Shown: in pieces, positions 18,478 through 21,787 of the stretch
Numbering within the stretch: position 1 is the stretch's first letter
Layout: each line of letters begins with the position of its first letter
Assembly: GCF_002854065.1 (NCBI RefSeq)
Contig: NZ_CP024147.1
From: Escherichia coli
GTDB taxonomy: Bacteria > Pseudomonadota > Gammaproteobacteria > Enterobacterales > Enterobacteriaceae
Strand: one strand, 5' to 3'
Length of the DNA stretch: 64,000 bases
Position numbers and translations under genes: made by a program
Notes under the pieces: generated by a model
Told to the model about the DNA's origin: nothing
The model's input: the letters and a program-made list of their open reading frames with translations, nothing else
The model's database searches: none

Positions 18478-18883
18478 TACCACCTCTTAAAAAAATGCCC
18501 ACATAGTGTAGTGCGGAGCGCATGTTGGGTAAACAGAGTGTTAATGAGAAAATATTACAGAGGAGAATAATTTGTGTGTCAGGTATGTTTTTTGCATTCA
18601 TAAAATGAATGCTCTATATGTTGAAAAAATGAATTTTAAAGCTAAATAGTTTTACATCAAAAAAATAATAATATCATTTCTTGATTACCATGTGCATTTT
18701 TTATCTTACGAATATGCTAGTTTTATCTTACTAAATAAACGATTTGGTGACATGGATGATAATGTTTCAGGCTAAATGTGTGCTTATTACTTGGGCCTTT
18801 ATGGCACTGTATTTATTCATTAAATGGATGTTTGGTGGTTAATTATTATGGAAGTATATGACAGTGAGGACATAAAGGTATAC

Positions 18884-19819
18884 ATGTTAACTAAAAGAAT
18901 ATTATTTTCTTTAATGCTAATAGTTTCACCAGGCGTGGTGGCAAGCGAGAAAGCGCATGAATTGTATGACAGCATATACGGTGGTCAACCTGCGCCCGAT
19001 GTTATAAATACACTGCATAAAATGGCTGAATTGGGAGATGTCGACGCGCAGAGCCTGTTAGGCTGGGAATATTATCAGCCTCGCTATGATACCAAACCTG
19101 ATGTTCAGGAAGCGATTAAATGGTTCGAGTTAGCCGCTAAACAAGGTGACAGAGAAGCTCCGTTAGCGCTGGGGAGTATCTACTACATCGGTGAGCTGGT
19201 GCGGGTGGATTATGCCAAAGCGTATGCACTATTTAATCAGGCCGCGCAATACGGTGTGAATTTAGCATGGTCCAGGTTGGGCATGATGTACGCCAATGGT
19301 CAGTATGTTGAGGTAGATTGTAAGAAAGCGAAGGAATATCTTGATAAAGGTGTCCACATTTATGGTGGTCCGGAAGACTTTCTGGCTACATGTCGAAAAG
19401 ACATGATTGACAGAAAAACGGTTGACGATACGTTACCCGTGATCACGGTTACCCGTTCTGGGATGCGGGATAATTTTTTAGATAAAGATTTTTCCTGCAT
19501 GGATAGCCTCTTCGCCACCACCAATAAATTAGGCGAAGTGGCCAATCTTCGCGTGACATTCAGCATTCGTAGCCCATCCGGTAAGGAGATTAACCAAACG
19601 GTTGGCTTCGCGCCTTTCGGTTTAAACCGGCTGAATATTAGCTTTACTGATTACATATTTGATTCATTTACCAGTAATTCGTCTCTAATTCTTTATAAAC
19701 CGGAATTTGAGCGAAAATCTTGTGCAACTGTAAGGACCACAATCGTTGCCGCAACGGCAACCATTAACGGCAAGGATGTGGAGTTGCTGAAAGCGGGGGC
19801 AATTGAACAAAAGTGGTAA
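18884..19819 (+). CDS. Secreted Sel1-repeat (TPR-like) protein with uncharacterised C-terminal domain
   Basis: ORF 18824..19819; likely start ATG 18884 preceded by AAAGG RBS, giving Sec-type signal peptide MLTKRILFSLMLIVSPGVVA-SE; three to four Sel1-like units (GDVDAQSLLGWEYY..., AIKWFELAAKQGDREAPLALGSIYYIGE..., AKAYALFNQAAQYGVNLAWSRLGMMYANG...); AT-rich; not in K-12 yajR-cyoE junction by recalled gene order. Confidence 0.7.
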   Translation: MLTKRILFSLMLIVSPGVVASEKAHELYDSIYGGQPAPDVINTLHKMAELGDVDAQSLLGWEYYQPRYDTKPDVQEAIKWFELAAKQGDREAPLALGSIYYIGELVRVDYAKAYALFNQAAQYGVNLAWSRLGMMYANGQYVEVDCKKAKEYLDKGVHIYGGPEDFLATCRKDMIDRKTVDDTLPVITVTRSGMRDNFLDKDFSCMDSLFATTNKLGEVANLRVTFSIRSPSGKEINQTVGFAPFGLNRLNISFTDYIFDSFTSNSSLILYKPEFERKSCATVRTTIVAATATINGKDVELLKAGAIEQKW

Positions 19820-19874
19820 CGCTGCTCAGCCCCCGGCTAAGGCAAAACTTGCCCTGGCGGGTGGCGATAATAAT

Positions 19875-20417
19875 CTAAGCCGCGAGAATATGCTGAATCG
19901 CCAAAAACATAGGTACAGCACCAAAAGCATTTGGTGTCGCTGAAAGCTGAACAAAGCCGAGACGAGCATAAAAGTTAATGGCGGCAGGGTCAGCATCAAG
20001 ATAAACCCCTTTAATTGGTAATGCCTGGTGAATTATTTTTACATGTTCAAAAAAATCACATAGTAGGTCCTGACCAAAGCCCCGCTTTTGATACTTCCGC
20101 GCCACCCCCAACATGACTAATCTGACAACACCAATCTCTGAAGGCTGTGAACCCTGAAGGACGCCAGAAACGCGTTGTTTTTCCAGCGAATATGCCGTAA
20201 AAGTACAGATGCCAATCAGTTCACCACTTTGTCTGTCAATAAGTGCTTTAGCCGCACAGTCGCTATTACGCACACTTTTCTTTAGCGATGTGCGTACAAA
20301 TTTATCGATAACAGGGTTACCGCAATCAAACTGTTTTTGCCCAGGATAAGTAATATCAGACTGATAATTACAGGAGAGGACTATGGGCAGAGTAATCTCT
20401 TCATGCTTGTCGACCAT
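19875..20417 (-). CDS. GNAT-family acetyltransferase, candidate type II toxin (TacT/AtaT/ItaT-like tRNA acetyltransferase class)
   Basis: 180 aa; N-terminal FDCGNPVIDKFV motif; acetyl-CoA pocket-like RKYQKRGFGQDLL; C-terminal INFYARLGF; start overlaps upstream DUF1778-like ORF by 17 bp; AAGGA RBS. Confidence 0.75.
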   Translation of the reverse strand: MVDKHEEITLPIVLSCNYQSDITYPGQKQFDCGNPVIDKFVRTSLKKSVRNSDCAAKALIDRQSGELIGICTFTAYSLEKQRVSGVLQGSQPSEIGVVRLVMLGVARKYQKRGFGQDLLCDFFEHVKIIHQALPIKGVYLDADPAAINFYARLGFVQLSATPNAFGAVPMFLAIQHILAA

Positions 20418-20712
20418 CGCTGTTTTTCCTTTTCATTAACGCCTTGAGTGCGAGCGTCGGTTGAGCAGGTTCGGCGATGAGTTGGTTCATCAGTTCCCAG
20501 CTTTGATTCGAAAGCTCACGGCGACGTTGGTTATCAAGCACGCTTTCGGCGCGTTCCATAGCAGCGCTCAAAATAAAGGCGCTTAAATCTAACCCAACGG
20601 CTTGCGCAGCTTCACGAAGTCTGTTTTTGGCGTCGGGACTGGTTTTGAGTTCAACCCGCGCATTTTTCAGCGTTTTATCGACATCGGGTAGAGTGGCTGT
20701 TTTTCCAGGCAT
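20401..20712 (-). CDS. DUF1778/ribbon-helix-helix-type antitoxin candidate
   Basis: ORF 20401..20778 trimmed to ATG 20712 (MPGKTATLPDVDKTL...) with AGAGGT RBS 7 nt upstream; 104 aa; pattern VELKTSPDAKNRLREAAQAVGLDLSAFILSA typical of antitoxins paired with GNAT toxins. Confidence 0.65.
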   Translation of the reverse strand: MPGKTATLPDVDKTLKNARVELKTSPDAKNRLREAAQAVGLDLSAFILSAAMERAESVLDNQRRRELSNQSWELMNQLIAEPAQPTLALKALMKRKNSDGRQA

Positions 20713-20765
20713 TGTGACCTCTTTGATTAACTGAATGAAATCGTAGGGAGTCGATCTCATACATA

Positions 20766-20784
20766 ATACGGCTATCAACCGTAT
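20766..20784. promoter_or_regulatory. Palindrome 1 ATACGG-N7-CCGTAT (putative antitoxin operator, overlaps transcription start region)
   Basis: ATACGGCTATCAACCGTAT read directly; lies immediately downstream of the putative -10 on the minus strand. Confidence 0.5.
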
Positions 20785-20788
20785 GATT

Positions 20789-20817
20789 AATTTATGTGCA
20801 TCTGCTCACTCTGTCAA
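20789..20817 (-). promoter_or_regulatory. Putative sigma70 promoter of the antitoxin-toxin operon
   Basis: Minus strand reads TTGACA (20817..20812) - 17 bp - TAAATT (20794..20789); perfect -35, 17-bp spacer. Confidence 0.5.
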
Positions 20818-20820
20818 GAG

Positions 20821-20839
20821 ATACGGTTATTAGCCGTAT
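20821..20839. promoter_or_regulatory. Palindrome 2 ATACGG-N7-CCGTAT (putative operator just upstream of -35)
   Basis: ATACGGTTATTAGCCGTAT; same half-sites as palindrome 1, centre-to-centre 55 bp. Confidence 0.5.
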
Positions 20840-20856
20840 CTCTGATCTCAGACAAT

Positions 20857-20882
20857 AAAAAAGGTGCCGTAGCACCTTTTTA
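20857..20882 (-). terminator. Rho-independent terminator downstream of cyoE (end of cyo operon)
   Basis: AAGGTGC-cgta-GCACCTT stem-loop flanked by A/T runs, immediately 3' of cyoE stop. Confidence 0.65.
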
Positions 20883-20896
20883 ATAGAGAGGTTTTG

Positions 20897-21787
20897 TTAC
20901 CACACAGCAGCCAGCAGCGTATGCGAGTCCGGTACCATAAAATCAACGGACATCATCACCGAGAGGGCAGTGATGGCGATGATAGAGAAGCCGAACAGCT
21001 TGCGCGCCCAGATTCTGTCATCAGCAACCTTATAACCGCGCAGGGCCATACCTAACCACCAGACGCTCACCGCCGCGGCGACCACCAGATATTTATATCC
21101 AGCGTAACCGCCAAGAGAGAGCATCAGCGTGGCAACGGCAAAGGCGATGATATACAGCGTGATGTGATTCTTCGCCACCGAAATGCCTTTTACCACTGGC
21201 AATACCGGAATGTTTGCCGCCTGGTAATCCTTAAAGCGGAAAATGGCGATGGCATAGGAGTGAGGCATCTGCCACAGGCTGAAGATAGCCAGCAGGATCG
21301 CTGCGCCGCTATCGAACTCGCCGGTTACTGCACAGTAGCCAATCACCGGCGGCGCAGCGCCGGAGAGCGAACCAATCAATGTGCCGTAGACTGAGTGGCG
21401 TTTCATGTACAGGCTATAAACGCCGACATAAACCACAAAGCCCATCACCCCCAGCCAGCAGGCCAGCGGATTCGCGCCAAACCACAGCAGCATAAAGCCA
21501 GCAATACCCAGCAAGGTGGCGTACACCAGCGAGACAGCAGGAGAGATCAGGCCTTTAACCAGCACCCGATTCTTCGTCCTTTCCATCTTTCTGTCGATAT
21601 CCCTGTCGATGTAGTTGTTAAACACACAACCCGACGCCACAACCAGTGACACCCCAACCAGCGTGTAGATAAACAGGGGATAATCAATGCTGCCCTTTGA
21701 GGCCAGCAGGAATCCCCCAATCACCGAGATCAGGTTGCCAAAGATGATGCCTGGTTTCGTTACTTGCAGGTATTGCTTAAACATCAT
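20897..21787 (-). CDS. cyoE: Protoheme IX farnesyltransferase (heme O synthase)
   Basis: ORF 20897..21832 trimmed to [18 protein letters not shown]... (296 aa). Confidence 0.93.

Follow-up and report, generated by a model that had tools for sequence, protein, structure and literature searches.

The described systems most closely comparable with the itaRT toxin–antitoxin module are kacAT of Klebsiella pneumoniae, ataRT of Escherichia coli O157:H7 and tacAT of Salmonella enterica. Conditional cooperativity, in which a toxin co-represses its operon at a low toxin:antitoxin ratio and derepresses it at a high one, governs relBE and phd/doc, and in relBE two dimers occupy adjacent sites within one operator. 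These last two systems show the general logic that the initial annotation invoked for the itaRT promoter, with antitoxin and toxin families that differ from those of ItaRT.

In kacAT (PDB 5ZGN; Qian et al. 2019, PMC6698736), the palindromic operator lies just past the −10 hexamer and is reported to span the transcription start. The bound complex is a KacT–KacA2–KacA2–KacT hexamer in which each RHH dimer reads one arm of the palindrome (PMC6698736). KacA binds weakly by itself and KacT serves as co-repressor; that excess toxin lifts repression has been shown both for KacAT (PMC6698736) and for AtaRT (PMC8138530). The ataRT complex (PDB 6GTS), as summarised in PMC8138530 and PMC6698736, is likewise a heterohexamer on a palindromic operator, with a toxin monomer on either side of the two antitoxin dimers; without toxin the antitoxin binds weakly, an excess of toxin frees the complex, and our comparison with ataRT follows these review descriptions. 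For tacAT, the available part of the report by VanDrisse et al. 2017 (PMC5449658) gives split-probe gel shifts with two sites, from −81 to −46 and from −46 to −6, and describes acetylation of TacA by TacT that alters binding.

Regulation of itaRT itself was studied by Wilcox et al. 2018, who cloned a 172-bp region upstream of the genes before galK and obtained ~40-fold more transcript than from a promoterless control (PMC6125619). ItaR together with ItaT, either wild-type or catalytically dead, brought transcription from this fragment almost to background, whereas ItaR alone had no effect; unlike TacT with TacA, ItaT does not acetylate ItaR (PMC6125619). The text of that study nowhere mentions an operator, palindrome, footprint or EMSA, the promoter goes unmentioned in the structural study of ItaT (PMC7367177), and our literature search returned no paper naming or defining an itaRT operator. 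Here we describe two palindromes, O1 and O2, which are very probably the two operators of the itaRT promoter, each putatively bound by one ItaT–ItaR2–ItaR2–ItaT heterohexamer.

The itaRT module and its island

The window, a 64-kb stretch of E. coli DNA, carries the module within an accessory island:

18488–20853, no strand: accessory island of 2.37 kb between yajR and the cyoE terminator, with a Sel1/TPR-repeat gene and itaRT, its promoter and the putative operators
19875–20417, minus strand: itaT, 180-aa GNAT toxin (aminoacyl-tRNA acetyltransferase), with a 17-bp overlap with itaR
20401–20712, minus strand: itaR, 103-aa RHH antitoxin (Pfam TacA1/DUF1778), with its ATG at 20712; RefSeq annotates 103 aa

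The genes downstream of the palindromes are the published itaR–itaT module, as they match the E. coli HS proteins and have the same overlapping antitoxin-then-toxin order. The toxin is identical to E. coli ItaT in PDB 7BYY at 178 of 180 residues, and one of the two differences lies at residue 115, which is G here and D in the crystal; this is the position of the inactivating G115D mutation (PMC7367177). Residues 14–96 of ItaR match KacA (5ZGN_A, E = 3.5e-11) and AtaR (6AJM_C); in kacAT and itaRT alike, a homologous RHH antitoxin is paired with a toxin that acts as co-repressor. Pfam assigns ItaR to TacA1 (2.8e-17) and finds GNAT domains in ItaT, while NCBIfam gave nothing useful for either protein. 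A longer reading frame of 125 aa, opening at a TTG within O1, was rejected as an over-extension of itaR, the RefSeq product being 103 aa.

The island stands in place of 95 bp seen in E. coli genomes that lack it and is present in ~1367 of 5426 complete E. coli genomes, or about a quarter. Its Sel1/TPR-repeat gene (18824–19819, plus strand) is convergent with itaRT, and the cyoE–itaRT–Sel1 arrangement is also found in a Pseudocitrobacter genome (locus L003).

Two palindromes bracket the itaRT promoter

The elements between itaR and cyoE are as follows:

20718–20723, minus strand: Shine–Dalgarno sequence AAGAGG, 5 nt before the itaR ATG; GAGGT is kept in homologous loci
20766–20784, no strand: O1, putative promoter-proximal operator, ATACGGCTATCAACCGTAT on the plus strand and ATACGGTTGATAGCCGTAT in the itaR direction
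20779–20784, minus strand: expected transcription start zone, 5–10 nt past the −10 and in the upstream arm of O1, as predicted from promoter geometry
20789–20794, minus strand: −10 hexamer TAAATT, 17-bp spacer; TAnnnT at 16–18 bp in 19 of 19 distinct related promoters
20812–20817, minus strand: −35 hexamer TTGACA; TTGAC invariant in 19 of 19 distinct related promoters
20821–20839, no strand: O2, putative promoter-distal operator, ATACGGTTATTAGCCGTAT on the plus strand
20858–20881, minus strand: cyoE intrinsic terminator, a 10-pair stem then a U-run (−13.9 kcal/mol, z = −6.2)

The initial annotation had reported two copies of ATACGG-N7-CCGTAT around a consensus promoter, and both copies were confirmed at these positions by reading the window directly. 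The promoter that it placed on the minus strand between them, TTGACA (20817–20812), a 17-bp spacer and TAAATT (20794–20789), is likewise present and is the sole sigma-70-like match in 19700–21100, agreeing at 10 of 12 positions. The word consensus fits only the perfect −35 hexamer, however, as the −10 agrees at just four of six positions, and the promoter is better described as near-consensus. The positions given for the palindromes relative to the hexamers agree with the sequence: the O2 core ends 4 bp before the −35 hexamer and the O1 core begins 5 bp past the −10, so that transcription starting 5–10 nt beyond the −10 would begin within O1, much as the kacAT palindrome is reported to span its start (PMC6698736). 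Counted from the start codon, the published reporter fragment (−183 to −11) would correspond to ~20723–20895 and contain both palindromes.

Within the 64-kb window O1 and O2 are the only matches to ATACGG-N7-CCGTAT with at most one mismatch, compared with a mean of 0.07 in shuffled sequence, where none of 100 shuffles gave two or more. They are also the sole matches to the TACGG-N7-CCGTA core (10 bases, at most one mismatch), for which 1.18 would be expected; because the core alone is not rare, the significance lies in the two exact copies 55 bp apart. O2 is nested in a longer inverted repeat found by a repeat finder, AGAGATACGG-N7-CCGTATCTCT (20817–20843). The outer part of this repeat lacks conservation: most E. 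coli copies have the allele CCGTATGTCT, which breaks the symmetry, and we rejected the long 10-bp arms as a special feature. Compared with strain GE3 there are three substitutions in the region and none in the cores, a number too small to weigh.

The cyoE terminator, just upstream, shields the itaRT promoter from read-through of the cyo operon. Its stem is symmetric and stands between an A-run and a T-run (ATAAAAAAGGTGC / GCACCTTTTTAAT; 20855–20884), so it could work in both directions. The Pseudocitrobacter locus has a different stem sequence at its cyoE terminator but an identical TTTTTTATTGTCTG after it. The whole operator–promoter region is flanked by an 11-bp direct repeat, GATCTCAnACA, present as GATCTCATACA (20753–20763) and GATCTCAGACA (20844–20854). 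The second copy stops at the right-hand junction of the island, and the repeat may have arisen by chance or be a trace of insertion.

Positions of the putative operators are conserved across ItaR-clade promoters

An alignment-based scan of species-representative genomes yielded 13 loci with ItaR relatives (66–91% identity), from Pseudocitrobacter, Edaphovirga, Rahnella, Buttiauxella, Phytobacter, Trabulsiella, Chimaeribacter, Serratia, Kluyvera and Superficieibacter. In the ~43 kb that these loci comprise, ACGG-N7-CCGT occurs 23 times, and every copy falls in the 300 bp that precede the antitoxin gene. Two perfect copies are present in ten loci; in two more, a perfect copy is paired with a degenerate one at the expected place, and the remaining locus has O1 only. 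Together with eight loci from viral contigs these gave 19 distinct promoters, in which the flanking sequence is unalignable while the order O2, TTGAC, TAnnnT, O1 is kept with the following dimensions:

O2 core end to TTGAC: 4–6 bp
−35 to −10 spacer: 17 bp, with one promoter at 16 and one at 18
−10 hexamer: TAnnnT
−10 end to O1 core: 5–10 bp

A site homologous to O1 is present in 18 of the 19, and a perfect O2 core ending 4–6 bp before TTGAC is also present in 18 of 19. In L007 and L014 O1 is degenerate and O2 intact, and L015 has no O2. Across all 35 operators TACGG and CCGTA are invariant. Their clade consensus, RTACGG-CT-NNN-AG-CCGTAY, has 7-bp arms around a 3-bp centre, and O1 and O2 of the window each depart from its inner CT/AG at one position. 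Outside the core, symmetry is only modestly enriched (0.63, 0.43 and 0.57 for the three positions nearest the core), a further reason not to treat the long O2 arms as special. Since 1368 E. coli genomes carry the region at ~98–100% identity, conservation within the species is uninformative. Only one of 24 related loci checked (L003) lies in a cyoE/Sel1 neighbourhood, which indicates that the sites move with the module and not with its host context.

This conservation bears on whether O1 alone does the work, as in KacAT and AtaRT, with O2 serving as an accessory or low-occupancy site that sharpens repression, or surviving as a decaying duplicate. Modules of the KacA/AtaR type do manage with one palindrome at the transcription start: in five from plasmids, native kacAT included, we found one GTACGG-N7-CCGTAC directly past the −10, in the place that O1 holds, and none upstream of the −35. 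The promoters L007, L014 and L015 show further that either site can decay, and a single operator may suffice. A perfect O2 core held 4–6 bp from the −35 in nearly all promoters is, however, hard to explain without selection, and the tacAT gel shifts show two occupied sites (PMC5449658). We therefore regard a repressor acting at O1 alone as improbable, and favour a role for both sites. The two tacAT sites lie within ~80 bp upstream and match the itaRT layout, although the available text (PMC5449658) gives them without sequence-level definition; the two-site arrangement is accordingly typical of the ItaR clade but has a precedent in the family.

A fixed helical phase between the two sites was considered and rejected. 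Their start-to-start spacing runs from 55 to 60 bp, a spread of about half a helical turn, and each site is fixed to its own promoter hexamer. This variation argues against a rigid contact between two bound complexes, so that cooperativity between the sites is conjectural, and we read O1 and O2 as two independently positioned roadblocks and not as a phased, looped pair.

The conservation also speaks to the idea that the palindromes act as nucleic-acid hairpins, with O2 as a back-up terminator or insulator against cyoE read-through, or O1 as a stem that stabilises the 5′ UTR. Folded as RNA with its extended arms, O2 reaches −15.2 kcal/mol (z = −4.9), and a simple scan scores O1 as terminator-like on the plus strand. 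However, no U-run follows O2, a strong cyoE terminator already stands just upstream, O1 forms no more than a weak stem (−7.6 kcal/mol, z = −1.8), and a full O1 stem would not be transcribed from the start predicted inside it. The core is kept as sequence and not through compensatory changes, and the outer arms that stabilise O2 are not conserved. We accordingly rejected assignment to the terminator or structural-hairpin class, and consider this explanation very unlikely.

In a number of the ItaRT-like loci (L004, L005, L012 at about 1290–1500, L021–L026, L029 and L031), the operator–promoter unit lies 190–290 bp upstream of the antitoxin gene, compared with ~70 bp otherwise. The extra ~180 bp holds a short ORF of ~16–22 codons that has a GGAG of its own (examples are MKFTANVFNLNRFRCIF and MKLRANYLKLRKIRHLS) and might encode a leader peptide or represent a third small gene. 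No such short ORF upstream of the antitoxin is present in the window.

The core matches the DNA bound by KacA

A structural comparison can be made with the duplex in the KacA4KacT2 co-crystal (PDB 5ZGN), AAATGTACGGTTATTAACCGTACATGA, set beside O2 on the plus strand, GATACGGTTATTAGCCGTATC. The TACGG-N7-CCGTA core is identical in O1, O2 and the crystal operator, which also share an AT-rich centre, and six of the seven spacer bases are common to the crystal DNA and O2 (TTATTAG against TTATTAA). In the KacA4KacT2–DNA structure R8 contacts the CG step, D10 contacts C8 and the C that pairs with G10, and R12 contacts the G just outside TACGG. These three residues align with R19, E21 and K23 of ItaR; the key arginine is retained and the substitutions are conservative, with the base-reading residues kept. 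The strand in question, K16-N-A-R19-V-E21-L-K23, is invariant or nearly so among 22 ItaR-clade proteins (60–91% identity to ItaR).

The two groups differ at the edges of this core. In all five KacA-type loci the residue corresponding to R12 is Arg and the core is flanked by G on both arms, giving GTACGG, whereas the ItaR clade has Lys at this position and an outer base that is A in 26 of 35 operators (74%) and G in nine. The inner arm bases differ as well, with the ItaR clade preferring TACGGCT...AGCCGTA. Residue 23 of ItaR (window ~20644–20646) covaries with operator position −1, and the pair is a candidate specificity contact.

The paired motif is associated with itaRT-type operons

The initial annotation had proposed that its reading would fall if the palindromes occurred at random frequency, unconnected with this operon. 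We queried IMG/VR for TACGG-N7-CCGTA-N36–45-TACGG-N7-CCGTA with no gene reference and obtained 11 loci, eight of which have ItaR and ItaT homologues adjoining, with the sites upstream of the antitoxin. The paired motif is thus specifically tied to itaRT-type operons.

The other three matches are of different kinds. Two are arrays of another palindrome, CTACGGAGT...CTCCGTAG, on G+C-rich contigs. In these viral contigs (L027 at 6290–6430 and L030 at 915–1010), the palindrome (A)CTACGGAGTnnCTCCGTAG(T) is repeated several times, is unrelated to ItaR genes, and looks like an iteron or a cluster of repressor sites. The third is a coding 15-bp tandem repeat on a high-G+C viral contig (L028 at 8400–8930), where at least eight perfect copies of CCCGTACGGACGAGC, along with scattered CCGTACGG, lie inside apparent coding sequence; the pattern match is accidental.

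That O1 and O2 belong to an unrelated host transcription factor, or are recombination leftovers of the island insertion such as terminal inverted repeats, might be suggested by the position of O2 15 bp from the right-hand island junction (20853/20854) and by the direct repeat that flanks the region, but is scarcely credible given that the site pair occurs beside ItaR homologues in chromosomal and viral settings that are otherwise unrelated, with cyoE nearby in one alone, that the sites always hold fixed positions relative to the promoter hexamers, and that their core equals the DNA bound by a homologous antitoxin in a crystal.

A model for repression by the ItaR–ItaT complex

Autorepression by the antitoxin or by the toxin–antitoxin complex had been put forward for this promoter. 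The published reporter results, the identity of the core with the KacA operator and the conserved positions of the sites all support this reading; the antitoxin alone is not expected to repress, given the lack of effect of ItaR by itself (PMC6125619), and the complex would thus be the repressor.

By analogy with the KacA4KacT2–DNA and AtaR4AtaT2–DNA crystals, one ItaT–ItaR2–ItaR2–ItaT heterohexamer would bind each 19-bp palindrome, its two RHH dimers putting their β-sheets into successive major grooves, one per TACGG half-site, across the AT-rich centre. A hexamer at O1 would cover the transcription start and the DNA just past the −10, while one at O2 would abut the −35, blocking this element and the DNA upstream of it, and the two together would exclude RNA polymerase. 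ItaT would be a required co-repressor that holds two ItaR dimers at the half-site spacing, and such a role in setting the dimer spacing would explain why ItaR alone does not repress. Physical binding at O1 and O2, its stoichiometry and the start site are what we infer from these comparisons.

The initial annotation also invoked conditional cooperativity. For ItaRT the co-repressor half of this behaviour is published (PMC6125619), and derepression when toxin exceeds antitoxin would be expected from the behaviour of KacAT and AtaRT.

The operator pair of itaRT, while unmapped before, is predictable within a known toxin–antitoxin family, and it leaves the picture of how such systems work unchanged. 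It provides base-pair coordinates for the operators of a module whose autoregulation was known only on a 172-bp fragment, and the clade consensus with its fixed promoter geometry can be used for annotation, for the design of binding and reporter experiments, and for questions of cross-regulation. On the last point we offer a tentative and, on balance, unlikely extension: the ItaR clade may use its two operators as a clamp on the start and the −35, tighter or more switch-like than the single operator of the KacA/AtaR clade, and co-resident paralogues (ItaRT, AtaRT and plasmid modules) could cross-regulate one another's promoters since the TACGG-N7-CCGTA core is common to all GNAT–RHH modules. 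If so, only two features would tune specificity: the inner CT/AG bases and the base just beyond the core, which Lys or Arg reads.

NEBExpress, a laboratory expression strain of E. coli from the B lineage, also has the itaRT promoter region, so this acetyltransferase toxin module may be present in hosts commonly used for protein expression.
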